From positions 14,838 to 78,837 of the forward strand of contig CAZWVF010000003.1 of assembly GCA_964637695.1 (NCBI GenBank): DNA of 64,000 nt. The letters are read 5' to 3'. Below the pieces are notes generated by a model. That model was not told where the DNA came from and did not search any database. It was given only the letters and a program-made list of their open reading frames with translations. Below, one piece after another: positions 1,576-64,000 of the stretch. This stretch comes from an uncultured Gemmatimonadota bacterium (GTDB lineage: Bacteria; Blakebacterota; Blakebacteria; Blakebacterales; Blakebacteraceae). Every line of letters starts with the position of its first letter. Position 1 is the stretch's first letter. The translations under genes were made by a program, and so were the position numbers.

Positions 1576-1617
1576 CAGCCTGCCGACAGAGGACAGGACA
1601 GAAAAGGAAATCGGGAA

Positions 1618-2580: not shown

Positions 2581-2591
2581 AGGAGAGATCG

Positions 2592-6443: not shown

Positions 6444-6497
6444 ATCGTTCTATTGATAAGACAGGAAACGGGCAGGTTCCGACAAACGGGTGTTGCC

Positions 6498-7283: not shown

Positions 7284-7293
7284 ATTTCCATCG

Positions 7294-8094: not shown

Positions 8095-8216
8095 GGTTAT
8101 CTCCGATCTGCTGTCTCGGTTTCGACTTTACAGCAGCAGGTTTAGGATACCACCTCCGCTCCCCTTTCTGTTACTGTCTAATTATCATCCCTCTGTTTTT
8201 CAGTGTGGTCACTCGT

Positions 8217-17510: not shown

Positions 17511-17786
17511 TTACCAGGAGTGCTCGATTGCACCAGGTTCACAGGCCGCCGTGCAGGGCAGGGGAGGCTGCGAGCCGACCGGTTTGCATTCGGCGCACGA
17601 GTACTTGATCTTTTTCCTGTGTTCATCCGTGACGGCTGCCACGACATCGTCGTAATCGTCGGTAATCATTTCCAGTACCCCCGCCGGGCACGCAGCAACG
17701 CAATCATTACAGGATGTGCACAGGTTGCTGTCGATCGTGATGAAGAATTCTCCGGAGCCGTCCTTGTAACCATAGTTTGCTCTCAT
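17511..17786 (-). CDS. 2[4Fe-4S] ferredoxin, Alvin/Thauera Fdx type (probable electron donor to benzoyl-CoA reductase)
   Basis: CTSCNDCVAACP and CAECKPVGSQPPLPCTAACEP. The second cluster has the extended Cx2Cx8Cx3C spacing seen in the Allochromatium/Thauera benzoyl-CoA-reductase ferredoxin. The start overlaps the stop of the upstream ATPase gene (ATGA). Confidence 0.8.
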   Translation of the reverse strand: MRANYGYKDGSGEFFITIDSNLCTSCNDCVAACPAGVLEMITDDYDDVVAAVTDEHRKKIKYSCAECKPVGSQPPLPCTAACEPGAIEHSW

Positions 17787-18658
17787 GACCTTACTTTTCC
17801 TTCTTTCTCGGCCAGAGCCCTGGCAAAGAGAGCACCTCCCAGAGCACCGGCGATCTGGGTGTCATGTTTCGGCTCGAGTGCCTCCACACCCATTTGTTTT
17901 GTCAGTCGCCTGACGACTCCGGCGTTCTTGGCGATGCCTCCGGTTATCGCGAAATCTTCCTCCACACCTATCCGTTCGAGAAGGGCGAAGACACGATCGG
18001 CCATGGCGGAACAGTACGCAGCCAGTACATCGTTCTTGGGCCATCCCTGACGCAGCAGACCGGTTGCCTCCGATTTGGCGAATATTACACATGTACTGCT
18101 TACAGGCTCCGGTTCCTCATCTATATCGAAGCTCAGATCCCCTATCTCCTCGATCGAGATCTCGAGCAGGTCGGCGAACACTTCCATGCCGCGTCCCGTT
18201 CCGGCGGCACATTTGTCGTTCATCAGGAACTCCTGGACCTTCCCCTTCTCGTCGATCCGGATCGCCTTGCAGTCCTGGCCGCCCATATCCAGAATCGTCC
18301 TCACGGCAGGGCCGTACATGTAGTTCGCACCTCGTCCGTGACAGGCGATCTCTGTAATTGCCCGGTCAGCAAAAGGTACGTTCACGCGCCCGTAGCCGGT
18401 ACCCACTACGTAATTGAGGTCATCCAGGGTCATTCCGGTGTCTTCAAAGGCCCAGTTCATGGCATTCTGTGCACTCTCGGGGCTGTCTGAACCGGTCCGC
18501 ATGTTGCTGTAGGCGAAGAGTTCTCCATCGGTCATTATCACCGCCTGCGAACTGACCGATCCGACGTCGACTCCGGCCGATATCACACCGGCCTGTTGCC
18601 AGTCTCTGTCAGGATCTCTCCAGTTGTATTCTTTCCAGCGCCAGTACTCGGTCGTCAT
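17783..18658 (-). CDS. class I benzoyl-CoA reductase ATPase subunit (BcrA/BzdQ/BadF-like, 291 aa)
   Basis: AGVDVGSVSSQAVIM, NDKCAAGTGRGME, TCVIFAKSEATGL, IAGALGGALFA are activase-fold motifs with the Cys pair. Its start overlaps the upstream gene's stop by 4 nt. Confidence 0.8.
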   Translation of the reverse strand: MTTEYWRWKEYNWRDPDRDWQQAGVISAGVDVGSVSSQAVIMTDGELFAYSNMRTGSDSPESAQNAMNWAFEDTGMTLDDLNYVVGTGYGRVNVPFADRAITEIACHGRGANYMYGPAVRTILDMGGQDCKAIRIDEKGKVQEFLMNDKCAAGTGRGMEVFADLLEISIEEIGDLSFDIDEEPEPVSSTCVIFAKSEATGLLRQGWPKNDVLAAYCSAMADRVFALLERIGVEEDFAITGGIAKNAGVVRRLTKQMGVEALEPKHDTQIAGALGGALFARALAEKEGKVRS

Positions 18659-19455
18659 GACTGCTCACCCCTTTCGCTGTCTGCTGCGGCCCTTTCGGCT
18701 GCCACCAGGGCGGCACCTATGGCTGCTGTGTACTCCGGATCGGGTGGTATCAGCAGTTCTGTCTCCAGGTCGCGGCCGAGTGAATCTATGAAGCCGACGT
18801 TGTAGGCCAGACCACCAACCAGAGCCACTGCCGGTTCTATTCCGACCCGCCGGACCATTGAGCTTATCCGGCTGGCTATGGCATCGTGGACAGCGCGGGC
18901 GATGTCTTCCTTCGGGGTCTTTGCATGAACCAGGCTCACCACTTCCGACTCGGCGAACACAGCACACTGGGCATTCATCGGGATCTCTCGATCCGACCTC
19001 AGAGAGAGAGCTCCGAACTCTTCCAGCGGAACTTCCAGGGCGCGGGCCATCGACTCGGTGAAGGAGCCGGCTCCGGCCGCGCATTTTTCGTTTACGACGA
19101 AGTCGAGTACCTTGCCCCCCTCATCGCATCTGACACCGCGACCCTCTTCGGCACCCACGTCAATAACGGTCCGCACGTTGTCGAAGAAGAAGTGTGCTCC
19201 CCTGGCTGCCGCCCCGACCTCCGTAATGTCGTCACGGGCCATGGGGACATCTTTCCGGCCTGCTCCAGTAGAAGTGATGTTCGGGATTTCGCTGTAATCG
19301 AGGTCGGCTGTCTGTGATGCCTGTTTCAATGCCTCCTGAAGTGCACCCTCCGTGTCGAGCCCTGCCGTAACCAGCGACTTGCTGATAATCTCTCCGTCGC
19401 GGAGGAATACCACCTTGACATTCTTGGCACCCATGTCCACACCAATTGAAATCAT
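18655..19455 (-). CDS. class I benzoyl-CoA reductase ATPase subunit (BcrD/BzdP/BadG-like, 266 aa)
   Basis: MISIGVDMGAKNVKVVFL, NEKCAAGAGSFTE, QCAVFAESEVVSL, TAAIGAALVAA. AAGGGAG RBS 9 nt before ATG. Confidence 0.8.
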   Translation of the reverse strand: MISIGVDMGAKNVKVVFLRDGEIISKSLVTAGLDTEGALQEALKQASQTADLDYSEIPNITSTGAGRKDVPMARDDITEVGAAARGAHFFFDNVRTVIDVGAEEGRGVRCDEGGKVLDFVVNEKCAAGAGSFTESMARALEVPLEEFGALSLRSDREIPMNAQCAVFAESEVVSLVHAKTPKEDIARAVHDAIASRISSMVRRVGIEPAVALVGGLAYNVGFIDSLGRDLETELLIPPDPEYTAAIGAALVAAERAAADSERGEQS

Positions 19456-19479
19456 GAATGTAAACTCCCTTGTTCTTTA

Positions 19480-20790
19480 TCAGGCCATGGCCCGGCTCAG
19501 ATCGAGCGTCTCCATGAATGCATCGATCCGGGTCATGGTTCTGGCTTCATCGAATTCCCGCTCATCACCCATGTTTCCCTCGAATGTCATGACAGGGTAT
19601 CCTGCTTCCTGCAGGGCCAGCCTGTTCTCGGCTATTCCCACCGAAAGGCCTTCGCAGCCGCGGTTGTAATGCAGCATTACACCTTCGAGCTGCCACTCCC
19701 TGGCGATACGGATCATCATCTCGTTCTTGTAGCGGGGAGAATAGAAGTGCTGCCACTCCGGTTTGCTCAGGTTCCAGTCGGCCAGAACGCGCAGGGCCTG
19801 CTCGCGCGTTTCCAGCTTGATCCCCAGTTGTTCGGGAGTGGTCCGCGGGCCCCAGCTGCCGTCGGGTTTGACCTCCCAGATACCTATCAGGCCGAAAGTG
19901 TATAGTGAACCCACAGAAACCACTCCGAATTCCTCCAGATAGCGGAAAATCTTGAGGAAGCCCCAGGGAGGCTGTGTATCGGAGATCAGGCGGCACCTCT
20001 CGTTGGCTACCGCTGCAATTCCATTATCTACCCGATCCTGTACCTCGTCGCGGAGTTCCTCGTAGAAGTCAGCCACCGATCCGGCGTGCTTCTCAAGCGT
20101 GCCCAGCACGTAGAGAGAGTACATGGTCTTTTCATCCAGAGGAGCTGGTATCGCCTTGTTGAGGGTGCAGATCTCGGCCCAGAGGGAGGTACTGCGGCAC
20201 TCATTATTTACCGCCTCGATGAGCAGGTCGTCGTTATACTCACGACCCGTTACTTTTTCCATCCACTCGATACCATCCATCATCTGGCCCACCACGTAAT
20301 CGAGCCCATTGTCGTCCAGCTCTTCGTATGGACCGCATCCAACATCGATGCAGAAGCTGGGGATATCGGGCTCCATGTCGGTGACCACCTGGTACCATTT
20401 TGCATGGCTGCAGCAGATGTGATCCTGCCAGATGAAATCGGGTTTGGGGAATTTGCCTCCGAATGCATACTCGTCGAGCAGGATCGAACCCCAGTAGTTT
20501 CGCATGTAGGAACAGAGGTCACGGGCATAACCCGCCTTTTCAACCGCTTCCAGACATCGTGTGGAAAACTCCCTGTTAAATGCGATAGAGGCTCCGTAGG
20601 GCTCCGATGTTATCGACCTGACATCAGTTCCCAAACCGGCAGGGATGGCGTCGAATGACCATGCACCTCCAGCCCAGCGGATGGCTCCTTTTCCGTGGGC
20701 ATCTGCATAGTCGGTGTAGTATTCCTGCCTCAGTTCCTTTGCTTTATTCCAGCATTCCAGGGGCCTGGTGGGGTACTTTGCATCGGCCAT
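19480..20790 (-). CDS. class I benzoyl-CoA reductase catalytic subunit (BcrB/BzdO/BadE-like, 436 aa)
   Basis: 436 aa, HgdA/BcrB-family. AAGGAG RBS 6 nt before the ATG at 20790. Size and gene order match the BzdO/BcrB position. Confidence 0.8.
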
Positions 20791-20832
20791 CTCATGCTCC
20801 TTTAACCCGATCTTTAAGAGAATCCGGGTGAA

Positions 20833-21960
20833 TTAGAAAAGGTCCTCGTCGCTCAGCATCTCCAGGAACGCCTCCACACGGACCCTGAACTGTCCGAGCG
20901 GCACCGTGACATCGAATTCCAGGAAGAGTGTTTTTATTCCGGCCTCATGGAAGGCTTTCTGAAGTGCGGGGATATCCAGCTCATGCGGATCGCAGAACTT
21001 CTGCTGTATCAGGATTGCCCCGCTTGCATCGTAGTCCTTTGCAAGCTCAAGCACATGCGGAATACGGGTACGTACCGGCCAGTCTTTCGAGGGACAGGCG
21101 GGACGCTCAACGTAACGGCGGGCTATCGACTCGAGCGGATCTCCGCCGTTCGATTCTGCTTCATTCCAGAAATACCGCGTCCCGGTGCAGTGATCGTCGA
21201 TAACAACTGTCGCTCCTACCGACTCAACCATCTCGACGAAATCGGTATCGTCATCTTCGCTGCCGACCAGCATAAGACGTACTCCGGTGGAACGGCCGGT
21301 CGAGTGATCCTTCAACCGGGGGAGAACCCTCTCCATCTCCCGGTTGTGGTCCTCTTTCGCAGTGGTCTGGCTGGAAACGGTCAGGTACATGGCCTCCAAC
21401 CCGGTCAGTGGAGGATTCTCCTGTTGACGCAGGTCGTAGATTTCTTTCTGATGCCGGCGATTCCGGTTCATCAGTTTGATTCCGCCATTCAGCTTTTCAT
21501 CTGAAATCGGTTCACCCGACCACTCCTCCAGGGAACTCTTGAATTTCTCCAGTTCGCCCCTCAGGAATGGTACGGCTCGCTGGCTCTGCACATGATTGGG
21601 CATCGGCAGGTAGTAGCTGAAATCGATCGGAATGTGCATCTCCCAGCTAGAGAATGCCTGCCTGATGTGCAGGCACGACTGGGCTATCATGATGCCATCC
21701 AGGTAATCGAACCGGCCCTTCAATCCCTGTGCAAGGCAATCGCGGCAGAAGGGGCAGAACATGCCGAAGATATGGGGCTCGGTTAAGTCCTGAGGTTCAT
21801 GACTTCCCAGAATCCGCACCGGGAGGATATCGGCGGCACAGAGGATCTCTTCCGGAACGTATGTACAGAAGTATCCCATCACTTTTCCGCCTGTTTCCTC
21901 TTTCCAGTTCTGTGCGTAGGAATGGCGGTTTTCGGCCCATTTCTGGAACTGCTGCATCAT
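20833..21960 (-). CDS. class I benzoyl-CoA reductase catalytic subunit (BcrC/BzdN/BadD-like, ~375 aa)
   Basis: MMQQFQKWAENRHSYAQNWKEETGGKVMGYFCTYVPEEILCAADILPV is an HgdB/BcrC-family N-terminus. GGAGG RBS 8 nt before the ATG at 21960. The track start at 21978 uses a TTG with no RBS. Confidence 0.75.
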   Translation of the reverse strand: MMQQFQKWAENRHSYAQNWKEETGGKVMGYFCTYVPEEILCAADILPVRILGSHEPQDLTEPHIFGMFCPFCRDCLAQGLKGRFDYLDGIMIAQSCLHIRQAFSSWEMHIPIDFSYYLPMPNHVQSQRAVPFLRGELEKFKSSLEEWSGEPISDEKLNGGIKLMNRNRRHQKEIYDLRQQENPPLTGLEAMYLTVSSQTTAKEDHNREMERVLPRLKDHSTGRSTGVRLMLVGSEDDDTDFVEMVESVGATVVIDDHCTGTRYFWNEAESNGGDPLESIARRYVERPACPSKDWPVRTRIPHVLELAKDYDASGAILIQQKFCDPHELDIPALQKAFHEAGIKTLFLEFDVTVPLGQFRVRVEAFLEMLSDEDLF

Positions 21961-22007
21961 ATTTACTTCCTCCCGCAATTCGTGTGCAGCGCTTGCTACA
22001 ATATACT

Positions 22008-22467: not shown

Positions 22468-22836
22468 ATGAGAATAATTATGAAACGTTCAGCCTCAGCG
22501 ATACCGATCCCGATCAGGCGAGCCTTGCGCAAGTTTGGTCAGGATATCCGTGACGCAAGATTGCGACGACGAATTCCGGTAGTCGTCATGGCCGAAAGGG
22601 CGTCAATCAGCCGCACTACGCTGAACAAGCTGGAAAAAGGCGAACCGGGCGTCTCGATTGGCAGCTATGCCACCGTGCTTTTCGTATTGGGTATGGCCGA
22701 AAGGCTCAGCGATCTGGCGGATGTGAAGAGCGATATAGTGGGGCTTGAACTGGAAGAGGAGCGTTTGCCCAAGCGTATCCGGAAATCAGGCCGGCGGAAA
22801 TCGGTTCAGCCTGACCTGAAAATAAAAAAAGTGTAA
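22468..22836 (+). CDS. hipB: XRE-family HTH regulator, HipB-like antitoxin
   Basis: SISRTTLNKLEKGEPGVSIGSYATVLFVLGM is a Cro/C1-type HTH. It lies immediately upstream of hipA. Start at 22468 or at the M at 22480. Confidence 0.7.
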   Translation: MRIIMKRSASAIPIPIRRALRKFGQDIRDARLRRRIPVVVMAERASISRTTLNKLEKGEPGVSIGSYATVLFVLGMAERLSDLADVKSDIVGLELEEERLPKRIRKSGRRKSVQPDLKIKKV

Positions 22837-22841
22837 AAGCA

Positions 22842-24074
22842 ATGGATACCGAAGTTCTTGTCTATGTTGATGTTGACGGCGCTTCGTACCTCACGGGACG
22901 GCTATGGGCACGAGTACGTAAGAACCGTCAAAGCGCCACATTTGAGTATGAACAAACATGGCTTGAGTATAAAGACCACTTCTCCCTGGAGCCGGCTTTA
23001 AAACTGGGTTCCGGTCCCTATCACACGGCAGGGGATAAACCTTTGTTTGGCGCAATCGGCGATTCCGCGCCCGATCGCTGGGGCAGGATGCTCATGCGCC
23101 GGGCCAAACGTCGGAGCGCAGAACGTGCAGGCGAGACGCCACGCACTTTGATGGAAATTGACTATCTGCTGATGGTCGATGACGAAGTGCGGCAGGGCGC
23201 ATTGCGATTTGCGACCACGGAGGGTGGACCATTTCTTTCCGCACGTGATGCTGCCCCCATTCCACCATTGATTGACCTGCCAAAGCTGTTATCGGCTGCC
23301 GACCATGTGGTCAGCGATTCTGACAGTGATGAAGATTTGCACCTGTTGCTTGCGCCTGGCTCATCATTGGGTGGTGCCCGTCCCAAGGCTTCTGTCCGGG
23401 ACAGGGACGGGGCGTTGGCGATTGTCAAGTTTCCGCACCGAGGTGATGAAATCGACACTGTGAGATGGGAGGCAGTCGCGTTGACGCTTGCTGCAAATGC
23501 AGGTCTTTCGGTGCCGAAATGGCGATTGGAGAATGTTGTCGATAAGCCGGTCCTTCTCTTGCGACGCTTCGATCGCATGGACGGCATGCGCATCCCCTTT
23601 CTGTCAGCCATGAGTATGCTTGGTGCCACAGATAACGAGGCTCGCAGCTATCTCGAATTCGTGGATGCCCTGCGTCAGCACGGGGCAGCTCCGAAAGAAG
23701 ACATGCACGCCCTGTGGCGGCGTATCGTCTTCAGCATCCTGATTTCCAATACGGACGACCACCTGCGCAATCACGGCTTTCTTTATGAAGGCCCCGATGG
23801 ATGGCGGTTGGCTCCGGCATATGACCTTAATCCTGTGCCTGTGGACATCAAACCACGCATCCTGACGACAGCGATCAATCTTGATGACGGTACAGCATCG
23901 GTTGATCTGGCGATGAGTGTTGCCGAGTATTTTGAACTCACGACTGATAAAGCGCGCAGCATAGTATCTGAGGTCGAAAGTGCAGTGGCCCAATGGCGAG
24001 AGACTGCAACAGGCTTGGGCTTTCGTGCCGGCGAAATCGACCGCATGGCATCAGCCTTCGAGTATCAATCATAA
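22842..24074 (+). CDS. hipA: HipA-family serine/threonine kinase toxin
   Basis: The HipA N-terminal coupling domain and the C-terminal kinase motifs LAPGSSLGGARPKASV and ISNTDDHLRNHGFLY...LAPAYDLNP are present. Gene order is hipB-hipA. Confidence 0.85.
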   Translation: MDTEVLVYVDVDGASYLTGRLWARVRKNRQSATFEYEQTWLEYKDHFSLEPALKLGSGPYHTAGDKPLFGAIGDSAPDRWGRMLMRRAKRRSAERAGETPRTLMEIDYLLMVDDEVRQGALRFATTEGGPFLSARDAAPIPPLIDLPKLLSAADHVVSDSDSDEDLHLLLAPGSSLGGARPKASVRDRDGALAIVKFPHRGDEIDTVRWEAVALTLAANAGLSVPKWRLENVVDKPVLLLRRFDRMDGMRIPFLSAMSMLGATDNEARSYLEFVDALRQHGAAPKEDMHALWRRIVFSILISNTDDHLRNHGFLYEGPDGWRLAPAYDLNPVPVDIKPRILTTAINLDDGTASVDLAMSVAEYFELTTDKARSIVSEVESAVAQWRETATGLGFRAGEIDRMASAFEYQS

Positions 24075-29276: not shown

Positions 29277-29377
29277 GGAGAAAGAAGCCTTTCACAGCGG
29301 GTGGGTAACCTGCTTCAATACCATTTGTAATCTATTTGATGCGTAATTGCCAGCAGGAGGGTTGCGACACCGCCGCT

Positions 29378-55636: not shown

Positions 55637-57298
55637 ATGGAGGAGCACATGACGGAGGAAGTCGTCGAGGCGGACGTTCTGTGTGTGGGAGGAGGGATCG
55701 CAGGTCTGATGGCCGCGATCCGGGCCGGAGAGTCGGGAGCGTCGGTGGTTGTCGTCGAGAAGGGTAATGTCCGCTACAGTGGATGCGGGCGTTCGGGAAA
55801 CGACCATTTCGAGGCCTATATTCCCGAGGTCCACGGATCCGATATTGACGAATTTATCGAAGAGCTGCTGAAGACCGCCAAGGGTGAGATCCTGCTGGGC
55901 AGGAACATCTTCAGGACCCAGTTCGCCAGGACGTTGAGTATCGTGAAGCTCTGGGACCAGTGGGGCATTCCCATGAAGTACCAGGGGGGGTGGGAATTTG
56001 CCGGTCACTCCTTCCCGGGACACAAGATGACCCATATCAAATACGAGGGAAGGTTTCAGAAGGAGGTACTGGTAAAGCAGGCGAAAGACCGGGGAGCAGT
56101 CATTCTGAACCGTGTAATGGTGTTTGATCTTCTGCGACATGGTGACCGCGTCATCGGTGCTCTCGGCGTCCATACGAGAGAGGAGAAGATTCTCCTGTTC
56201 AGGGCGAAGGCCGTGATCCTGGCGACCGGCAAATGCTCCAGGCTCTACCCGAGTCTGACCCCCGGGTGGATGTTCAACGATCCCCACGGAGGAGTGCAGT
56301 CGGGAGATGGTCGGGCCATGGCATATCGGGCTGGAGTCGAGCTGCAGAACGTGGAGATGCCCCAGCGTCACATTGGACCCAAGTACTTCACAAAGTTCGG
56401 ACAGGCCTCCTGGATAGGGGTAGTGAAGGATCCTCAGGGGGAGCCTGTCGGCGACTTTGTACAGAAGCCGGACCGGAAGTACGGGGACATGATTCTGGAG
56501 GCCAACAAGCTTGTAGCCGAGGAGTATCGGGCTGAGGGGAAGGGCCCTCTCTACATGGACTGCACCGGAATTACCGAAGAGGATTATAAGTACATGATGC
56601 ACTGGATGGAGCACGAGGGGAACATATCTCTCCTGGACCACATGAGAGAGGAGGGGATCGATATCCGCAGACACCCGATTGAGTTTTCAACCTATCCCCT
56701 CCGGGCGGGGGGATTGATCGTCGCCAATGAGAAGGCGGAGACGAATCTGGAAGGATTGTACTCCACAGGCGATGAATCTTTTGGAGACATCTCTGCTGCG
56801 GCAACTTTCGGCTGGATAGCGGGTGAAAATGCGGCACTTGCTTCCCAGGAGACGCAGGCCGGTGACATCGAAGTCGAGAGGCCGAAGATCGACGAGATGG
56901 GGAGCTTCATCGAGCAGCTCAGGGTAAGATCGCAGGGACCTGACTGGATTGAGACGAACATCGCTCTGCAGCAGGTGATGAACGACTACGCCGGTATGGT
57001 CCGTAATGGAGCATTGCTGGAGCAGGGCCTGAGCCACCTGAAGAGGGTCAGGGAGAAGGCCCGTTGCGAGTTGATCGCCAGAAATCCTCATGAGCTCTGG
57101 CGATGCCTGGAGGTTATCAACCTGCTTGAGATTGGTGAACTGGTCCTGCTCATGGCGCTCGATCGCAAGGAGACAAGAGGCCTTCATCGGCGTCCCGATT
57201 TTCCTGAAATGGATCCGATGCTGGACAAGGCTCATGTTGTGCACCTGATCGATGGCACGCCCAGAATCGAGTGGCGGAGCTATCAGGGAGGAAGATAA
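55637..57298 (+). CDS. FAD-dependent oxidoreductase of the succinate dehydrogenase / fumarate reductase / AprA flavoprotein family
   Basis: ADVLCVGGGIAGLMAAIRAGESGASVVVVEKGNVRYSGCGRSGNDH is an FAD dinucleotide fold with AprA/FrdA-like continuation. 553 aa. The start may be the second ATG at 55649 (GGAGG 5 nt upstream). The minus-strand ORF 55586..56674 is an antisense shadow. Confidence 0.75.
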   Translation: MEEHMTEEVVEADVLCVGGGIAGLMAAIRAGESGASVVVVEKGNVRYSGCGRSGNDHFEAYIPEVHGSDIDEFIEELLKTAKGEILLGRNIFRTQFARTLSIVKLWDQWGIPMKYQGGWEFAGHSFPGHKMTHIKYEGRFQKEVLVKQAKDRGAVILNRVMVFDLLRHGDRVIGALGVHTREEKILLFRAKAVILATGKCSRLYPSLTPGWMFNDPHGGVQSGDGRAMAYRAGVELQNVEMPQRHIGPKYFTKFGQASWIGVVKDPQGEPVGDFVQKPDRKYGDMILEANKLVAEEYRAEGKGPLYMDCTGITEEDYKYMMHWMEHEGNISLLDHMREEGIDIRRHPIEFSTYPLRAGGLIVANEKAETNLEGLYSTGDESFGDISAAATFGWIAGENAALASQETQAGDIEVERPKIDEMGSFIEQLRVRSQGPDWIETNIALQQVMNDYAGMVRNGALLEQGLSHLKRVREKARCELIARNPHELWRCLEVINLLEIGELVLLMALDRKETRGLHRRPDFPEMDPMLDKAHVVHLIDGTPRIEWRSYQGGR

Positions 57299-57525
57299 TG
57301 CCACCGATCATTGATTCTGATCTGTGCTCACGCTGCGGTCTGTGTGTGGAGATCTGCTCGGAAGATGTCTTTTTTGGATCAGAAGAGGGTGAGCTCCCAA
57401 CGGTGACATATCCTCTGGAGTGTATCCACTTCAGCGGATGCGTCTACGAATGTCCGGATGGAGCAATTAAGCTCCGTATCCCTCTGCCGATGCTGCTGGT
57501 GTACAGACCCACCTCAACCGGCTGA
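57298..57525 (+). CDS. small 2[4Fe-4S] ferredoxin resembling the N-terminal ferredoxin domain of AprB
   Basis: MPPIIDSDLCSRCGLCVEICSEDVFF...LECIHFSGCVYECPDGAIKL. The CxxCxxCxxxCS ... CxxxGCxxxCP spacing resembles the AprB N-terminus. GGGAGGAAG RBS. The start overlaps the stop of the flavoprotein (TAATG). Confidence 0.65.
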   Translation: MPPIIDSDLCSRCGLCVEICSEDVFFGSEEGELPTVTYPLECIHFSGCVYECPDGAIKLRIPLPMLLVYRPTSTG

Positions 57526-57545
57526 TAGCGCGAATACCTGCTGAC

Positions 57546-58949
57546 ATGAGACAAACGAAGGCCCCACCGGCGGAAGAGCGATCTCCCACATTCCCTGAAG
57601 CGGTTATCACGGTGGTAGTCATCGCCGTCACGATCATCGTCTGCCTGCCTCTGCAATCGGGCCTGCAGGCCGTATTCCTGCCGTTGACCCTGGGTGTGGG
57701 CGTTGTCGGGGTGCTGAACCTCATCCTCCGCAGGTCGTGGGGGGGCTTTCAAAGAGGCGTAATCGAAGGAGTCAGCAAGGTGAGCATCGCGATGCTCATC
57801 CTGCTGCTGATCGGTGCGCTCGTGGGGGTATGGATCCAGGGGGGAGTCATCCCGACTCTCATCTACTACGGCCTGCACATACTCTCACCTTCCTTTTTTC
57901 TCCCGGGTGCGTTTCTGGTCTGTCTGATCATTTCGATGGTCATGGGTACCTCCTTCGGCACAATCGGAACGGTGGGCATTGCCCTGATAGGCGTGTCGGT
58001 GGCCCTCGGAGTGCATGTACCCGCAACCGCGGGGGCTATTCTGAGCGGTGCGTATTTCGGCGACAAGATGTCACCCCTTTCGGATACAACCAACATCGCG
58101 TCCGCCGTGGGGGAGGTCGATATATTCCGCCATATCCACTCGATGATGTACACGACGGTCCCCGCCGGGATCATCACCTTCGTCCTTTTCTATTTCGCCG
58201 GACAACGTGCCCTCTCCGCGGATCTTACCCAGCTGCAGCCGATGCTGGAGGGAATCGGGAATTACTGGAACATCTCCCTGTTCCATATCGTCCCGATCGT
58301 GTTGATGCTGGGAATGGCACTCTGGAGAGTCGGTACGCTGCTGCTTCTGTTCATCAGTTTTGTCGTGGGGGCGGTCTGGGCAGTGGTTTTCCAGAACGCC
58401 TCTCTGACGTCGGTGTTCATCGTCGCTACGTCCGGCTTTCAAAGCGAATCCGGTGTCGCGAGTGTGGACCAGGTGTTGACGCGCGGGGGGATTACCTCCA
58501 TGCAGGCGGTGATAATCCTGATTCTTCTCGCGGGAGCCCTGGGTGGCGCCATGAAGGTCACCGGGGTGCTGGATGTTCTCGTAGATGGTCTGGCGCGGTG
58601 GATCAAGAGCACGGGGTCCCTCATTGTAGCGGTGCTCGTCTCGGCATATATCGTGATTCTGTTCACGGGCAATCAGGCGCTCGCCCTCATCCTGGTAGGC
58701 CAGGTTTTCCTGCCCGTTTTCAGGGAGCGGGGTATCGACAGTACCGTGCTCACACGATCGCTGGAAGACTCTGGAACGATTGCAGCTCCGCTGGTTCCCT
58801 GGGGAGTGGCCGGGGGAGTGTGCTCCGAACTGCTTGGTGTCCCCACAATCCAGTATCTGCCCTATATGTGGTTTGCATTTCTCGTGCCTGTTTTCTCGGT
58901 AGTCTATGGCTATACCGGATTTGCCGTATGGAAGGCGACGAACGATTGA
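57546..58949 (+). CDS. NhaC-family Na+/H+ antiporter (second paralogue)
   Basis: GTSFGTIGTVGIALIGV and SGAYFGDKMSPLSDTTNIA are collinear with the product of 31816..33216. The overlapping ORF 57737..58954 is a GC-rich alternate frame. Confidence 0.8.
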   Translation: MRQTKAPPAEERSPTFPEAVITVVVIAVTIIVCLPLQSGLQAVFLPLTLGVGVVGVLNLILRRSWGGFQRGVIEGVSKVSIAMLILLLIGALVGVWIQGGVIPTLIYYGLHILSPSFFLPGAFLVCLIISMVMGTSFGTIGTVGIALIGVSVALGVHVPATAGAILSGAYFGDKMSPLSDTTNIASAVGEVDIFRHIHSMMYTTVPAGIITFVLFYFAGQRALSADLTQLQPMLEGIGNYWNISLFHIVPIVLMLGMALWRVGTLLLLFISFVVGAVWAVVFQNASLTSVFIVATSGFQSESGVASVDQVLTRGGITSMQAVIILILLAGALGGAMKVTGVLDVLVDGLARWIKSTGSLIVAVLVSAYIVILFTGNQALALILVGQVFLPVFRERGIDSTVLTRSLEDSGTIAAPLVPWGVAGGVCSELLGVPTIQYLPYMWFAFLVPVFSVVYGYTGFAVWKATND

Positions 58950-59141
58950 TATAGGAAACCATCGACCGCTATCCCCTTGAAATATTTCATCTTCTATGTG
59001 CCGCAACGAGTCACGAATACTATAACATCTCCTGATTTACTTGTGACAGTCTGTCATATCTGATATGAATATTTATTCCCCCCAAGTAGCAGCTCTCCAG
59101 TGAAATAGATCTGAACCTCCTCAGAACTATAACGCATCAGG

Positions 59142-59161
59142 ATATTCCCTTGAAGGAATAT
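59142..59161. promoter_or_regulatory. inverted repeat ATATTCC-N6-GGAATAT 20 bp upstream of the HigB-like toxin start. Candidate antitoxin operator.
   Basis: Seen directly. A second palindrome TGACAGTCTGTCA lies at 59044-59056. Confidence 0.3.
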
Positions 59162-59180
59162 TCCGGGAAGGTTATAATTT

Positions 59181-59546
59181 ATGTGGCAGGTCGAATATAC
59201 GGAAGAATTCGGAGAGTGGTGGGAATCGTTAACGGAATCTGAGCAGATCGACATCGATACTGTTGTCGGAGTGCTCGAACGCCTGGGTCATCACTTGCCG
59301 TATCCGTACAGCTCAGCGATTAAGGAATCCATGTACGGACATATGCGGGAGTTGCACATCCAGCATGTCGGGCAACCGTACCGCATCCTGTACGCATTCG
59401 ATCCGAGACGGATTGCCATCCTCCTGATTGGTGGGAGGAAAACCAGTGGCAGCAGGTGGTACAGGAAGCATCTCCCCATCGCAGATCGGCTGTACACAAC
59501 TCACCTCCGGATGCTCCAGAATTCAGGGGAGGGAAACGATGACTGA
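59181..59546 (+). CDS. RelE/ParE-superfamily toxin (HigB/Gp49-like type II TA toxin)
   Basis: MWQVEYTEEFGEWWESLTESEQIDIDTVVGVLERLGHHLPYPYSSAIKESMYGHMRELHIQHVGQPYRILYAF has the phage Gp49/HigB-like fold pattern. It is followed by an overlapping HTH gene. Confidence 0.75.
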   Translation: MWQVEYTEEFGEWWESLTESEQIDIDTVVGVLERLGHHLPYPYSSAIKESMYGHMRELHIQHVGQPYRILYAFDPRRIAILLIGGRKTSGSRWYRKHLPIADRLYTTHLRMLQNSGEGNDD

Positions 59547-59850
59547 GCCATACAGAAACCTGAGGGAAAAGATATCTCCCAGGGCCAGGGAACTGGCTGT
59601 CCGGAAGACGCAGGAGATTGTGGCTGAAATGGCTCTGCAGGAGCTGCGTCTGGCGTTGGAGTTAACCCAGGAGGAGGTAGCGCGGCTCCTGAAAACGAGT
59701 CAGGCGAATGTTTCTAAACTTGAGCGTCGGACCGATATGTATATCAGCACATTACGGGAATTCATCCAGGCAATGGGTGGACAGTTGGAAATTGTCGCCA
59801 GGTTCCCCGGGGGATACGTGAAAATCGATCAGTTTCAGGATATCGCATGA
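59539..59850 (+). CDS. HTH XRE-family antitoxin (HigA-like)
   Basis: ATG 59539 with AGGGGAGGG upstream, overlapping the toxin stop. LTQEEVARLLKTSQANVSKLERRTDMYISTLREFIQAMGGQLEI is a Cro/C1 HTH. The track ORF 59428..59850 is in the same frame but its upstream part is an extension. Confidence 0.7.
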   Translation: MTEPYRNLREKISPRARELAVRKTQEIVAEMALQELRLALELTQEEVARLLKTSQANVSKLERRTDMYISTLREFIQAMGGQLEIVARFPGGYVKIDQFQDIA

Positions 59851-59893
59851 TAGCGAAGGGGCGTTGGATGAGATTTGACGGGGGACAGGGAAC

Positions 59894-59923
59894 CTGGTGC
59901 CGGGGGCGGGACTCGAACCCGCA
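59894..59923 (-). repeat. repeat copy A: 30-nt perfect match to the reverse complement of a tRNA 3' end (GCGGG-TTCGAGT-CCCGC T-arm, CCCCGGC acceptor strand, A, CCA). No 5' half is present.
   Basis: TGGTGCCGGGGGCGGGACTCGAACCCGCAC is identical in copies A, B and C. No GCCGGGG partner strand within 100 nt, so it is a tRNA-3'-end fragment (att-like) and not a gene. Confidence 0.6.
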
Positions 59924-59985
59924 CGCCAGTGGCAGGTTTGCTGTAACGTCACTCACACCACTATACTGTATACAGGAAACGAACA

Positions 59986-60300
59986 ATGAAATACGGAGAG
60001 ACCAGCATGTCCCGTGACGAAATACTTGAGTTATTGAGGTCACACTATACTGAAATGGTCGAGCGCTACGATATTGCCTCACTTTCTATCTTTGGGTCGA
60101 TAAGCCGTGATGAGCATGATGACAGCAGTGACCTGGATGTGCTTGTATCCTTCCAGGGGGCAGCAACATTCGATGGATATATGGGACTGAAGTTCTATCT
60201 GGAGGAACTACTTGGCAGACATGTAGATCTCATCACTCCGCCAGCCTTGAAACCTCGTTTCAGACGTAGAATCGAGAATGAGCTGCTCCATGTCGCGTGA
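59986..60300 (+). CDS. nucleotidyltransferase-domain protein (MntA-type antitoxin)
   Basis: IFGSISRDEHDDSSDLDVLVS is the GS-x9-DxD minimal nucleotidyltransferase motif. It is paired with a HepT/DUF86 gene. Confidence 0.8.
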   Translation: MKYGETSMSRDEILELLRSHYTEMVERYDIASLSIFGSISRDEHDDSSDLDVLVSFQGAATFDGYMGLKFYLEELLGRHVDLITPPALKPRFRRRIENELLHVA

Positions 60301-60637
60301 TCCTTTGCTCTATCTTGAGGATATTATCGAAGCATGTGATAAGATCCTGCTCTACACAAAGGACACCAACTTCGATAAACTGAAATCAGATTCAATGTTA
60401 TTCGATGCAGTTGTGCGAAACATCGAAGTAATGGGAGAAGCTGCTAAAAACGTTTCTGATGCTCTCCGTCAGGAAGTACAGGAAGTTCCCTGGAAGGAAA
60501 TCGCTGCAATGAGGGATGTTTTGGCGCACGTATATTTCGGCGTCGATCCCGAGATTGTTTGGGATATCGTTACAACTAAGGTCGAGCCTCTAAAGAGTGC
60601 TATTGGCAGGTACCTGGAACAGCACTCTGAAGAATAA
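60290..60637 (+). CDS. HepT/DUF86 HEPN-domain toxin
   Basis: RDVLAHVY is the R-x4-6-H HEPN motif. It overlaps the MntA stop by 11 nt (alternative start 60278). Confidence 0.8.
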   Translation: MSRDPLLYLEDIIEACDKILLYTKDTNFDKLKSDSMLFDAVVRNIEVMGEAAKNVSDALRQEVQEVPWKEIAAMRDVLAHVYFGVDPEIVWDIVTTKVEPLKSAIGRYLEQHSEE

Positions 60638-60649
60638 TAAAACAATCCC

Positions 60650-60727
60650 TGGTGCCGGGGGCGGGACTCGAACCCGCACACTTCATTCACCTATTGTCAT
60701 CTATTTGGAGCACAGTTTAGGGCGCAG
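60650..60727 (-). repeat. repeat copy B: tRNA-3'-end fragment plus the conserved downstream block ATTGTCATCTATTTGG...GGGCGCAG
   Basis: Same 32-nt head as A and C. It shares ATTGTCATCTATTTGG and the GGGCGYAG tail with copies C and D. Confidence 0.6.
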
Positions 60728-60752
60728 ATAAACAGCGCGCCTGATGTGTGTC

Positions 60753-61341
60753 TTAATCCGATATCTCTCCAGAGTCTTCATTTGTCTGCCAGGGCCCGCC
60801 GGGCGGCCAAGATTGAATGGTTGTTTTCTCGTCACGGGCTGATGCAAGGACCGGCAGCAGGAAGGCAGCCAGTTCCTCGATAACAATCTTCAGATCTTTG
60901 GCCGGTTTTTCCAGTCGGTTCTTACTCAGAAATGCCTGCCACTGTTTCTGCTTTTCTGGGCTGCTGCCGAATTCCCCGCTCAGGGCGGTCGGTGTATTCT
61001 CGGGTAGAGGCGTCTGACGACGTGTGAAGGTGTTCCGAACAGCTGCGGCCAAGGGAGTATTATTGTACTGCTGTGCTCGTGATAGGATGAGAATATCGTA
61101 AAAGTCCTTCATGCGGCTGTTGGCGAAATCGCGTCCGACTGCCGAACCATATGAGCATCAGAGCAGCACCTTTGAGAGTAAACTGCTCTACATGGGAAGA
61201 GCAGGAAAGACGGTAAAGGAAGCGCTCAATGGCGAAGCGGGTAAAGAGCAGGTTTGGATCGACACCCTCATCTTGGCTGAGATTCAATAGCCGCTGTTTA
61301 ACAGAGGCGGCTATGTTTTTCAGCGGTGATCGCGCAGTCAT
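60753..61341 (-). pseudogene. AbiEii-type nucleotidyltransferase toxin gene, disrupted by a frameshift
   Basis: The N-terminal part (ORF 61060..61341: MTARSPLKNIAASVKQRLLNLSQDEGVDPNLLFTRFAIERFLYRLS...FTLKGAALM) and the C-terminal part (ORF 60753..61112) lie in different frames and overlap around 61060-61112. Confidence 0.6.
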
Positions 61342-61946
61342 TGAACCAGAGTCTCCAGGTAGGGCTGGATGACCTTCTGCACCCGACAGACGACAGCGTA
61401 CCGGTTCAGTGCAGACAGGTCCAGCCGTCGTTCTCGCCAGGCTTCTGTAAGAGCCTCCAGGACGACATCCATACCGATCTTGTTCCTGTATTTGAAACAG
61501 TCGGCAATAGTTTTATTGAGATTGAAAACAGCTATCTTCTGCTTCTCGATAGTGTGGAACTCAACTCCTGTTGAGAGAGCCGGGTCTGAATATCTCACAA
61601 CACGTAGAAGAGGATATTTAAGAGCGGGTTTTCGCATGCGGTTTGGAATTGCTAGCCATACCTCGGATGGTATCTGAGTCCCTACTCCATGATATTGAAG
61701 AGAGGAGAGAAGACAGATCACACCGCGTGAGACGGCAGCTGAGACTAGCACCAGGGCGTGATATTCAGTAACATCACTCCCCTTCCAGCGGTAATAGCCA
61801 CGACTGATCCATTCCAGGAGTCCTTCTTCCACAAGTCGAGTCAGTACCTGGGAATGGATACCATTCTCGAGTGCCTGTTTAGCCGAAATAATCCCGCTTG
61901 AACGTGCAATCTCAATGGTTCTGGTACGTTGTGTAGCATGCTTCAT
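61338..61946 (-). CDS. AbiEi-type antitoxin / transcriptional regulator
   Basis: N-terminal winged-HTH-like region (IEIARSSGIISAKQALENGIHSQVLTRLVEEGLLEWISRGYYRW) and a position directly upstream of the AbiEii remnant, overlapping it by 4 nt. Confidence 0.7.
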   Translation of the reverse strand: MKHATQRTRTIEIARSSGIISAKQALENGIHSQVLTRLVEEGLLEWISRGYYRWKGSDVTEYHALVLVSAAVSRGVICLLSSLQYHGVGTQIPSEVWLAIPNRMRKPALKYPLLRVVRYSDPALSTGVEFHTIEKQKIAVFNLNKTIADCFKYRNKIGMDVVLEALTEAWRERRLDLSALNRYAVVCRVQKVIQPYLETLVQ

Positions 61947-62057
61947 GTGTGATAATGTATATAAATATTAATAAATGTCAACACAATCACACACACTATT
62001 AACATTCTTATTGTAGTCCTCCAATACCTTCCGACATATGATATCCTCGAATATTTC

Positions 62058-62132
62058 TGGTGCCGGGGGCGGGACTCGAACCCGCACACCACCACCAATT
62101 GTCATCTATTTGGGGCACAATCTGGGGCGTAG
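62058..62132 (-). repeat. repeat copy C: tRNA-3'-end fragment plus conserved block ATTGTCATCTATTTGGGGCACAATCTGGGGCGTAG
   Basis: See copy B. It lies between abiEi and the secreted hypothetical gene. Confidence 0.6.
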
Positions 62133-62220
62133 TTTCCTGATGTAATTGCGTTTGCTTCAATAAGGTAGTCTAATCCGAGTAGAATCCAGTTACACTGATC
62201 ATTGTTGGAGGAAGTCATCG

Positions 62221-63438
62221 ATGAGATTTTTACGGATATTCATGGTAGGAGCCATATGCTGCACTGGTATTGCTCTTCTCCCTGCCTGGGCAGGTTTGAT
62301 ACCTACCTCTCAGGTACAGTTAGGGCCAGACGGAGTACAGGAGGTTGTTTCGAGAGCCCGCCGACCACTGCCACCACCCTGGCGTCTCGAGGAAGATCTC
62401 ATTGTCGGTGTGGAATATGGGGATGAAGAGTACATGATCAGGAATCCAAGGGATTTCACTGTCCTCGAGGACGGTTCGATCGTCATCTTCGACAGCAATC
62501 CCTTTCAACTCAGGGTGTATGATTCAGAAGGCAGATTCATAACGGAATTCGGACAGGCCGGCCAGGGACCGACAGATCTGCCAAGTTATGCTGTTGGAAG
62601 AGGTGTATTAAGGGACGCCGGACCGGATCGCTTCGAAATCTGGAGCGGTTGGCCAACCAGGCTACAAACCTGGAATATAATCGGCGAGATGCTATCGGTG
62701 GAGACCCTTGATGAGGACCATCCCTTCCTGCGGGGCAGGGCACCCAGGATAATCAAATTATCGGGAGAACGTGTTTATGGATTAACCCTGGCGGTCAGGA
62801 GCCCTCGCCCGGAACTGCGCCAATGGGTCACTACCCTTCTAGTTTCGGGTTGGGAAGCCACTGAAGCAGATACCGTCAGGTTTGTTGAACACTCCGAAAT
62901 GCCTTTTGAGACCGGCTGGTTCCTGGAAGGATCGGGCGTCTTCCCTTACGACGACATACTCCTCACACGAAATGGGAAATTGTATATCTCCAGTTATGAG
63001 GAGGACTGGGTGCGGGAACTGAATCCGGCTTCAGGTCAGGAATTGCTCCGCTTCAAATGGGAACATGAACCGGATTCCTTTTCGCAAATGGAGATAGATA
63101 ATCCGAACAAAGAATTCGTGGATAATGTCAGGACCGGCTTCGAATGGTTCCAGGAGAGAGTATCGATCATGCATCTGGCCGAAGGACCGGATAGTGAGAT
63201 CTGGGTCCAGCGCATCGTGTGGCCCCGTGCAGGAGCAGGCAGGACATTCAAACATGGCTATGAGGAGGGAACCTGGCCGACTGATGTGTTCAGCGCTTCC
63301 GGAGAATACCGGGGCCGAATGACCCTTCAATATGAACCTCGGACACAGAAGATGGTAGGTGACTACATCTACGCCATCGGCTCGATCGAAGGAGGCGCCG
63401 CGGCCCTGATACGATTCAGGCCCATACCAATACGGTAA
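62221..63438 (+). CDS. hypothetical secreted protein (signal peptide; repeated Gly/Trp-containing beta-strand segments suggest a beta-propeller-like fold)
   Basis: N-terminal MRFLRIFMVGAICCTGIALLPAWAG signal. 405 aa with no recognisable catalytic motif. Internal minus-strand ORFs 62310..62508 are artefacts. Confidence 0.45.
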   Translation: MRFLRIFMVGAICCTGIALLPAWAGLIPTSQVQLGPDGVQEVVSRARRPLPPPWRLEEDLIVGVEYGDEEYMIRNPRDFTVLEDGSIVIFDSNPFQLRVYDSEGRFITEFGQAGQGPTDLPSYAVGRGVLRDAGPDRFEIWSGWPTRLQTWNIIGEMLSVETLDEDHPFLRGRAPRIIKLSGERVYGLTLAVRSPRPELRQWVTTLLVSGWEATEADTVRFVEHSEMPFETGWFLEGSGVFPYDDILLTRNGKLYISSYEEDWVRELNPASGQELLRFKWEHEPDSFSQMEIDNPNKEFVDNVRTGFEWFQERVSIMHLAEGPDSEIWVQRIVWPRAGAGRTFKHGYEEGTWPTDVFSASGEYRGRMTLQYEPRTQKMVGDYIYAIGSIEGGAAALIRFRPIPIR

Positions 63439-63484
63439 AGGATAAACTGGCACGCCTTATCTCTTGTACCGTTACAGGTCAATT

Positions 63485-63548
63485 GGACTCGAACCCGCAT
63501 TCTACAATCACTTATTGTCATCTATCTGGGGTGCAATCCGGGGCGCAA
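63485..63548 (-). repeat. repeat copy D: degenerate copy (GGACTCGAACCCGCA...ATTGTCATCTATCTGGGGTGCAATCCGGGGCGCAA) lacking the acceptor/CCA part
   Basis: It shares the T-arm half and the ATTGTCATCTATYTGG block with copies B and C. It lies between the hypothetical gene and the Ser/Thr kinase gene. Confidence 0.5.
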
Positions 63549-63604
63549 ATTCCGGTCGTATTTGCTTCACTACCAGTATCCGACTCCGGTAGAATCGCGA
63601 TATT

Positions 63605-64000
63605 ATGATCGGCAAAACCATCAGCCACTATAAGATCGTCGACAAACTCGGCGAGGGCGGTATGGGCGCTGTCTTCAAAGCCGAAGATACGACCCTCCAC
63701 CGCTTGGTGGCGCTCAAGATTCTCTCCAGCCAACTGGCCGGGGACGAAGAAGCCCGGGAACGCTTCGTCCGTGAAGCACAGGCAGCTTCAGCCCTCAACC
63801 ACTCCAACATCACAACGGTCTATGAGCTGCTTGAAGATGAGGGAGAGCAGTTCATCGTCATGGAGTATGTAGAGGGCAAGACTATCCGAGATATTGTCGA
63901 GTCAGGACATGTATCTATCAGGAAAGCCCTCGATATCATCATACAGGCCGCTGAAGCACTGGATGCTGCCCACAACAAGGGCATCCTCCACCGGGATGTT
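63605..64000 (+). CDS. Hanks-type serine/threonine protein kinase, N-terminal part (runs off the window)
   Basis: YKIVDKLGEGGMGAVFKAEDTTLHRLVALKIL (Gly-loop + VAIK lysine), ...HNKGILHRDV (catalytic loop HRDxK begins at the window edge). Missing from the ORF track because no stop lies inside the window. Confidence 0.75.
   Translation, partial: MIGKTISHYKIVDKLGEGGMGAVFKAEDTTLHRLVALKILSSQLAGDEEARERFVREAQAASALNHSNITTVYELLEDEGEQFIVMEYVEGKTIRDIVESGHVSIRKALDIIIQAAEALDAAHNKGILHRDV

Follow-up and report, generated by a model that had tools for sequence, protein, structure and literature searches.

Hotspots adjoining tRNA genes are a main route by which bacteria gain defence and addiction genes, and they are usually viewed as graveyards of self-sufficient islands. 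In the tycheposon islands of Prochlorococcus, incoming elements push older ones outward and leave partial tRNAs (Hackl et al., doi 10.1101/2020.12.28.424599), and the tandem ssrA genomic islands of Dehalococcoides are reported to show the same outward pushing with partial copies (PMC3146451). The cis-mobilisable elements (CIMEs) of streptococcal ICEs (integrative and conjugative elements) represent units flanked by attachment (att) sites that lack an integrase (PMC5704250). Here, we analysed a 64-kb stretch of DNA (hereafter, the window) from an uncultured Gemmatimonadota bacterium, at the downstream end of which small toxin–antitoxin and defence cassettes alternate with copies of a tRNA-Leu 3′ end. 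The array continues beyond the window to an intact tRNA-Leu(UAA) gene, and is likely to have accreted through site-specific integrations, one after another, at the 3′ terminus of this gene, the origin that the initial annotation of the stretch had favoured. That proposal gained support because the tRNA gene was found as predicted, the repeats mark the boundaries of cassettes in further genomes too, and cassette content and order vary among related genomes, so that the locus is not invariant.

tRNA-Leu 3′ ends and the terminal tRNA gene

A 15-mer core, GGACTCGAACCCGCA, occurs four times in the window, at 59909, 60664, 62072, and 63485, each time on the + strand. Shuffling predicted 0.24 copies, and none of 100 shuffles gave four. 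The repeats containing this core, at 59894, 60649, 62057, and 63485, are co-oriented and of the tRNA 3′-end type that had been annotated; read as parts of a tRNA, all four lie on the minus strand. Copies A, B, and C share 31 identical nt, CTGGTGCCGGGGGCGGGACTCGAACCCGCAC, in agreement with the 30–32 nt initially noted. The reverse complement of this segment comprises a T stem (GCGGG), a T loop (TTCGAGT), CCCGC, an acceptor strand (CCCCGGC), the discriminator A, and CCA.

Repeat A (59894–59940) is a displaced tRNA-Leu 3′ end consisting of CCA, the acceptor strand, the T arm, and a variable-arm-like hairpin, GCCAGTGGC, and it corresponds to positions 1–34 of the long-form nhmmer model. The other three repeats are of a short form, in which a second block follows the tRNA-derived part. 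This block, ATTGTCATCTATYTGG, matched the window with zero mismatches only at 60693, 62098, and 63514, i.e., in copies B, C, and D, as had been claimed, and is followed there by two G-rich repeats. In repeat B (60649–60731), a spacer of 15 nt separates the 31-nt tRNA 3′ end from a single arm repeat, CTATTGTCATCTATTTGG, after which come the two G-rich repeats with a spacing of 12 nt (E = 2.8e-26 with the short-form model of nhmmer), and repeat C (62057–62138) was likewise detected by nhmmer (E = 5.1e-24). Repeat D (63485–63556) keeps only part of the T arm: the acceptor and CCA portion and half of the T stem are deleted, and the match is to short-form positions 14–83. Because of this loss, cassettes 3 and 4 are probably fused.

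To the right, the array was followed in contigs that, as with all comparison sequences used here, come from metagenome assemblies. Contig L001 was reached by exact-protein look-up with AbiEi, L031 by the same look-up with the Na+/H+ antiporter, and L038–L040 through a cluster member of the helix-turn-helix (HTH)–nucleotidyltransferase (NTase) protein P0243. L031 was 99.96% identical to positions 56664–64000 of the window, and L039, which was 100% identical to L031 over 2428 nt, runs through to the tRNA gene. In L039, an intact tRNA-Leu with the anticodon UAA closes the array at window-equivalent positions 69919–70005, approximately 6 kb past the window end and on the minus strand, where a complete tRNA had been predicted. 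Between the window and this gene, L001 and L031 contain the remainder of an 864-aa kinase gene, copy E (core only), a gene for a 145-aa nucleotidyltransferase (NTase-145), copy F, intact AbiEi and AbiEii genes, copy G, and the start of the HTH-NTase gene.

In window-equivalent coordinates, the order is therefore A (59894) followed by mntA–hepT, B (60649) by a decayed abiE pair on the minus strand, C (62057) by a gene for a 405-aa protein, D (63485) by the kinase gene (63605–66199), E (66249) by NTase-145, F (66968) by abiEi/abiEii, and G (68731) by HTH-NTase with a 112-aa HEPN-like gene, and then tRNA-Leu. The whole array thus comprises seven cassettes in 10.1 kb, with the distal 4 kb in the window. 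Each cassette is one gene or one operon of 0.7–2.7 kb. All seven partial tRNA copies are co-oriented with tRNA-Leu, and every repeat starts exactly at the CCA end. The description of the region as a hotspot of defence and addiction modules accordingly holds, with seven small toxin–antitoxin and defence cassettes behind tRNA-Leu.

Outside the repeat-bounded array, on the 5′ side of tRNA-Leu, contig L040 carries an AbiEi-like (264 aa) and AbiEii (293 aa) pair at 1335–3003 (window-equivalent ~70160–71830). In other genomes (L041–L043), this pair lies in toxin–antitoxin-dense regions without these repeats, and the 264-aa AbiEi is therefore not a conserved anchor.

ARAGORN predicted no tRNA in the window or in the related loci L005–L010, and Rfam returned no family above chance at the window repeats or for the short and long repeat forms, matching a T-arm fragment only. 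These two results rule out complete or unusual tRNA genes, and the repeats have, as initially stated, no matching tRNA 5′ half. An Rfam match to mir-504 at 61566 scored far under the family threshold and was dismissed as chance. RNAalifold, applied to 10 copies, predicted a 5-bp T-arm hairpin, an enclosing 5-bp stem, and a 4-bp block-2 stem, with one compensated pair overall. The stems predicted beyond the T arm have no compensatory support, which led us to reject conserved folding of the short form, whether as RNA or as single-stranded DNA. A dispersed repeat resembling miniature inverted-repeat transposable elements or repetitive extragenic palindromes was also rejected, given that the copies are clustered, co-oriented, and adjoin a tRNA gene, with none elsewhere in the 59 kb upstream. 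A weak match to part of the arm, TTTGTAATCTATTTGA (29315–29348, + strand; nhmmer E = 0.007), lies between penicillin-amidase and hybrid histidine-kinase genes and is probably due to chance, since no core is nearby.

Long and short forms of the repeat

An exact-pattern scan for block 2 recovered at least one genome contig (L004, from a Gemmatimonadota metagenome-assembled genome, MAG) and at least six metagenome contigs (L005–L010). The further block copies for which the initial annotation had called are thus carried by at least seven loci.

In L006, L007, L009/L035, L010, and L005, the repeat occurs in a long form of approximately 200 nt. It opens with the 3′ 62 nt of tRNA-Leu, which run from the anticodon stem (loop CUUAAAA) via the variable arm, T arm, and acceptor strand to CCA. 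These are followed by approximately 75 conserved nt that include GCCGGTAGTACGTTTTCGAACA, by two direct copies of the 18-nt arm repeat CTATTRNNATCTATTTGG lying 29 nt apart, and by two copies of the G-rich repeat GGGCGCAG spaced by 12 nt. In blastn searches of phages and plasmids, long-form positions 1–59 matched annotated tRNA-Leu genes in phage records and nothing else matched. That the att site came from a phage or plasmid was rejected, as the matches listed in these searches and in the viral contigs were confined to its tRNA-Leu part or due to chance.

The variable arms differ between long-form copies, each still able to form a hairpin, and the T stems are of two types, GCGGG/CCCGC or GCGAG/CTCGC, which differ by compensatory changes; the resident tRNAs have the second type. 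The retained pairing and the compensatory T-stem variants fit fragments that each once completed a working tRNA. At 1312–1344 of L007, a hybrid T arm combines GCGGG-ACTCGAA with CTCGC on the opposite side, which a crossover in the T loop or a single point mutation would both produce.

The arm motifs were found within repeats only, in one orientation only, and only on the side away from CCA. In a variant long-form repeat of L005 (2901–3103), GGCCCCAA replaces GGGCGCAG in both G-rich repeats with the 12-nt spacing unchanged, and the differences extend to the arm repeats. At that position, L035, which is otherwise near-identical to L005, has the standard form followed by a Fic gene. As judged from the sequences, this change of both G-rich repeats in concert suggests that one protein reads both, and the direct repeats of the arm probably bind a protein. 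With a core that matches the tRNA exactly and direct repeats of the arm type, the long form would correspond in its anatomy to the site (attP or attR) of a tyrosine integrase that targets tRNA genes.

The derivation of the short form can be traced through a copy at 1009 in L005 and 845 in L035. This copy is a long form with one clean deletion, by which the left end, ...CGCACGCCCCA, is joined straight to CACCTATTGTCATC... The short forms are only a few changes away from this intermediate and have a common type of junction, CGCACACCACCAACACCTATTGTC, with small variations. The 80-nt repeats of the window are thus deletion derivatives of the full site of approximately 200 nt, and the shared junction type indicates that the short forms have a single origin. 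They adjoin eight or more different cassettes, in three or more genomes. Some copies are reduced further, with A and E having no arm and D no acceptor part.

Cassette content and exchange among loci

The array of the MAG (L004/L029) likewise ends in tRNA-Leu(UAA) on the minus strand. In L029, a partial long-form repeat is followed by a β-lactamase-fold gene, a kinase fragment, and thyA; subsequent repeats introduce a PKD/PQQ protein gene, an intact abiE pair, HTH-NTase/HEPN, and a 990-aa kinase gene, in this order, after which come the tRNA gene and housekeeping genes. Comparison of loci by blastn, together with repeat maps, showed that cassette order and content differ among the window strain, L029, L035, L007, L006, and L010, the breakpoints falling at repeats. 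HTH-NTase/HEPN occurs with three different left neighbours (abiE on the + strand in the window strain, abiE on the − strand in L029, and Fic-350 in L035), and Fic-471 has four right neighbours (Fic-350 in L035, the variant repeat in L005, one kinase type in L010, and another kinase type in L007). NTase-145 is preceded by the kinase gene in the window strain and by a different sequence in L035. In the orientation of the window, the arm goes with the cassette on its right.

Across all loci, the cassettes encode AbiE, MNT/HEPN, and Fic proteins, TIR with a PD-(D/E)XK nuclease, AbiEi with an RNase T-like exonuclease, nucleotidyltransferases, kinases, the PKD/PQQ protein, thyA, and the β-lactamase-fold protein. 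Decay is also visible outside the window strain, as L029 contains both an mntA fragment and a kinase fragment.

The nearby tyrosine or serine recombinase that the initial annotation had proposed to seek did not appear in the window, in the cassettes, or beside the MAG array. A regular-expression search for the box-II motif in six frames of the window and 10 loci gave no tyrosine recombinase. Among the 47 of 49 window open reading frames (ORFs) of at least 100 aa that were compared with Pfam, there was no recombinase, the products being those of ordinary metabolism, transporters, regulators, and a hipBA pair. Neither a recombinase gene nor a fragment of one was present among approximately 20 distinct cassettes (approximately 30 instances) across the loci, and the MAG scaffold L029 has none within 10 kb on either side of its kinase gene, an interval that spans the whole array and the tRNA. 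In viral contigs, the block-2 16-mer gave at least 18 matches, all attributable to chance with no core or full block nearby, and the spacer motif of the long form was absent among the matches listed. The search was negative everywhere we looked, so the enzymatic step discussed below is a proposed one.

The only mobility genes seen flank the array of L007, namely an ISL3-family transposase gene (1–1245) and a group II intron (7191–7316; Rfam RF02003, 54 bits, above threshold), from which it appears that this locus also collects other mobile elements. A further Gemmatimonadota contig, L041, has co-oriented toxin–antitoxin and defence genes, namely HipA, two AbiE pairs, and a MazG-like gene beside a Schlafen-like helicase gene. 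A 39-nt direct repeat of another kind (82% identical) occupies 709–747 and 2648–2686 of this contig, each time in an intergenic gap. No tRNA-Leu-type repeat and no tRNA were found in the 11.7 kb of L041 that were read.

Pfam upheld the gene identities assigned in the window (higBA-like, mntA/hepT, abiEi/abiEii, and Ser/Thr kinase). To the left of the outermost detectable repeat lie genes for a HigB-like toxin of the Gp49 family (59181–59546, + strand; PF05973, E = 3.8e-17) and a HigA-like HTH antitoxin (59539–59850, +; HTH_37 and HTH_3). This pair is either the flank that originally adjoined the tRNA or a formerly repeat-bounded, older cassette with a decayed distal repeat; nhmmer detected no repeat remnant in 58950–59180. 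Cassette 1 encodes the MntA nucleotidyltransferase antitoxin (59986–60300, +; NTP_transf_2, E = 2.2e-13) and the HepT (HEPN) toxin (60278–60637, +; PF01934, E = 4.2e-27), whose stop codon lies 11 nt ahead of repeat B.

In cassette 2, which is inverted, the AbiEi antitoxin/regulator gene (61338–61946, − strand; AbiEi_4) has its own promoter-like site at 61981–61954, and the AbiEii toxin persists as remnants (60753–61341, −) that match only positions 1–33 and 159–231 of the Pfam profile. The remnants form two ORFs in different frames, consistent with the frameshift initially annotated, yet the toxin gene is deleted and not just frameshifted: the window abiE cassette is 92% identical (blastn) to the abiE of L029, where AbiEii is intact (315 aa), and lacks approximately 350 nt inside abiEii that correspond to L029 6480–6833. 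Cassette 3 encodes the 405-aa protein (62221–63438, +; from the ORF list), which has a hydrophobic, by eye signal-peptide-like N-terminus and a weak beta-propeller match under the curated cut-off (DUF5128, E = 0.0017). Cassette 4 encodes the Ser/Thr protein kinase (63605–64000, +; Pkinase, E = 7e-24), which is cut at the window end and is 864 aa long in the identical contigs L001 and L031.

Promoter-like sites, identified as consensus matches only, immediately precede higB, abiEi, and the gene for the kinase. That of higB, TTGAAG-17-TATAAT, ends 2 nt upstream of the ATG. That of the kinase gene, TTCACT-18-TAGAAT (63566–63595, +), is located in a leader that follows block 2 of kinase cassettes and is conserved in L004, L006, L007, and L010, with the ATG 10 nt on. 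Behind this leader, kinase genes consistently begin approximately 60 nt past block 2. In all three cases (59150–59181, 61981–61946, and 63566–63607), the −10-like hexamer ends 2–10 nt ahead of the start codon, which suggests that the transcripts of cassette genes are leaderless or near-leaderless. The cassettes are also tightly packed, the gap between the last stop codon and the following repeat being 11–100 nt. The lower GC content reported for the region is real but modest, at 0.505–0.511 compared with 0.544 in the rest of the window (standard deviation of 4-kb windows, 0.015), and single cassettes are heterogeneous (0.445–0.561).

Elsewhere in the window, far from the array and among metabolic genes, a hipBA-like pair (22468–24074, +) encodes a 122-aa HTH protein followed by a 410-aa HipA-family kinase (HipA_C, E = 4.9e-49). 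Two clusters, at 4194–9479 and 17783–21978, contain 2-hydroxyacyl-CoA dehydratase D-component genes with BcrAD/BadFG-type activase ATPases, beside which lie genes for a CoA ligase, an enoyl-CoA hydratase, and a large Fe-S flavoprotein. The two dehydratase clusters point to anaerobic metabolism of acyl-CoA or aromatic compounds.

Origin of the array and comparison with known systems

Under serial integration at tRNA-Leu, each unit would be a small cassette with an attP-like site on one side, comprising a tRNA 3′-end copy and then a conserved arm. A circular cassette would recombine with the tRNA gene, the exchange taking place within the tRNA segment that they have in common. The copy brought by the cassette would restore the tRNA, and the previous 3′ end would be pushed outward and remain as a repeat fused to the arm of the incoming cassette. 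Repeated rounds would yield the seven cassettes, and further decay of copies A, D, and E would have fixed their cassettes in place. The recombinase, most likely a tyrosine integrase, would be supplied in trans, either by another part of the genome or by a helper element. The compactness of the cassettes, the retention of the arm, and the absence of integrase remnants indicate that they are probably non-autonomous units moved in trans and not the wreckage of large islands. The join must lie within the tRNA segment, because the innermost cassette sits between the arm-bearing repeat G and a tRNA gene that has no arm on its far side. If recombination is still site-specific, the crossover would fall in the T-arm/acceptor part common to all forms, given that the short form has no anticodon arm and is nevertheless widespread.

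Several points weigh against this scheme. We infer excision and re-integration from anatomy and not from circles or empty sites. Neither a recombinase nor an autonomous relative with this att site was found among the matches listed (at least seven block-2 loci, viral contigs, phages, and plasmids), and copies A, D, and E are without parts that a recombinase would need. Metagenome assemblies tend to break at repeats, yet the cassette order was recovered in at least three independent assemblies. In addition, the long or short form of a repeat does not track cleanly with either neighbouring cassette, and block-2 subtypes look homogenised within each array (L007 compared with L035 and the window strain). 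These last two features indicate a contribution of homologous recombination or gene conversion between repeats, which could explain much of the shuffling without an integrase.

Taken to its full extent, such exchange would require only one or a few initial integrations, after which RecA-dependent recombination between repeats of 80–200 nt, e.g., following uptake of foreign array DNA, would add, remove, and reorder cassettes with no dedicated enzyme. The repeats, being 81–100% identical over 80–200 nt, would serve as portable homology, and the homogenised subtypes, the loose association of repeat form with any one neighbour, and the lack of a recombinase gene all agree with this explanation. 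We nevertheless consider it very unlikely as the whole account, since it leaves unexplained how the innermost cassette became joined to the tRNA without an arm on the other side, why paired direct repeats change in concert, and why repeats start exactly at CCA. It is also unlikely that the array consists of decayed remnants of self-sufficient, integrase-bearing islands at tRNA-Leu, in which deletions spared addictive or selected genes and the cassettes were never mobile as such. Decay is plainly visible in the truncated copies D and E, the AbiEii deletion, and the mntA and kinase fragments of L029. Toxin–antitoxin modules resist loss through addiction, which counts in favour of such decay, and degenerate elements with scattered partial tRNAs are known from tycheposon islands (doi 10.1101/2020.12.28.424599). 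Island decay is at odds with the absence of any integrase gene or fragment in approximately 20 distinct cassettes, the uniformly tight spacing from stop codon to repeat, and the conserved arm kept beside nearly every cassette; nor would random decay give one deletion-derived short form at so many cassettes in several genomes.

The initial annotation had also raised an integron-like array with an unusual recombination site, which would be either an integron or an attC cluster without an integrase (CALIN), in each case with an attC-like site of an unusual type. The cassettes are indeed small, mostly co-oriented, rich in toxin–antitoxin genes, and free of internal recombinases, as in sedentary chromosomal integrons. 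In contrast, neither IntI nor another tyrosine recombinase was found in the 64 kb or in the loci, the only consistent hairpin is the 5-bp T arm with no R″/L″–L′/R′ palindrome, and no GTTRRRY was seen by inspection at repeat boundaries. Genes have their own promoter-like sites upstream, one cassette is inverted, and at the end of the array stands a tRNA gene, the 3′ part of which forms the repeat itself. A true integron is therefore hardly credible here, and the likeness is one of function only.

Returning to serial integration, we regard it as possible, if doubtful, that the array is a working integron-like platform for gene capture on tRNA-Leu, in which single-operon cassettes with their own promoters and without recombinases, each bearing a tRNA-derived attP with arm repeats, are excised one by one and inserted in trans by an unlinked tyrosine integrase of the host or a helper. 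Were this true, uncultured Gemmatimonadota-like bacteria would gain a shuffleable store of toxin–antitoxin and defence genes. The units are of integron-cassette size, regular, and recombinase-free, yet they have full-looking attachment sites and show shuffling from genome to genome. Should a single unlinked integrase serve them, they would represent a second, integron-independent way to build a cassette store, based on a double-strand att site and a tRNA platform. A signature made up of the tRNA-Leu 3′ end and, after it, CTATTGTCATCTATTTGG and GGGCGCAG repeats can be used in metagenome searches aimed at further arrays and the missing enzyme, and the repeats account for the breaking of assemblies of these genomes at the locus.

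With tycheposons and the Dehalococcoides ssrA islands, the array shares partial copies as direct repeats and strain-variable content, and it would also share repeated integration at the 3′ end of one tRNA or tmRNA gene with outward displacement of older units. As in other tandem tRNA arrays, a terminal intact tRNA is accompanied by co-oriented repeats with variable DNA between them; an element-encoded integrase is lacking here. As a rule, those islands encode a tyrosine or serine recombinase of their own, or recognisable fragments of one, and extend over several kb to tens of kb, whereas the units described here are single operons of 0.7–2.7 kb without a recombinase, each with a conserved attP-like arm. 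In being att-flanked and devoid of recombination and transfer genes, the cassettes resemble CIMEs, which have no integration or transfer genes, lie in tandem at the ICE target site, and depend on the integrase of a related element. CIMEs usually occur singly, as decayed derivatives beside an ICE. The present array differs in having seven or more units in a row, regular and compact, with no helper seen, and in belonging to a different lineage, with a Gemmatimonadota MAG among the relatives.

Integron arrays and CALINs are alike in stockpiling small, toxin–antitoxin-rich cassettes that have one recombination site each, with the recombinase outside the cassettes. Here, in place of a folded attC there is a tRNA-derived double-strand site of the attP type, a tRNA gene takes the part of attI as platform, and the cassettes have their own promoter-like sites; IntI, attC sites, and promoterless cassettes under a common promoter are all absent. 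The pdif modules of Acinetobacter plasmids are also small and site-bounded, often contain toxin–antitoxin genes, and have no recombinase of their own, being thought to be moved by a host enzyme. Their sites are 28-bp XerC/XerD dif-like sequences in alternating orientation on plasmids, in contrast to the co-oriented tRNA-Leu-derived fragments on a chromosome described here. Our literature search found no description of such arrays in Gemmatimonadota or at tRNA-Leu. The principle of outward accretion at a tRNA gene is already established by the systems above, and the unusual part of this locus is its cassette-like regularity without a recombinase.

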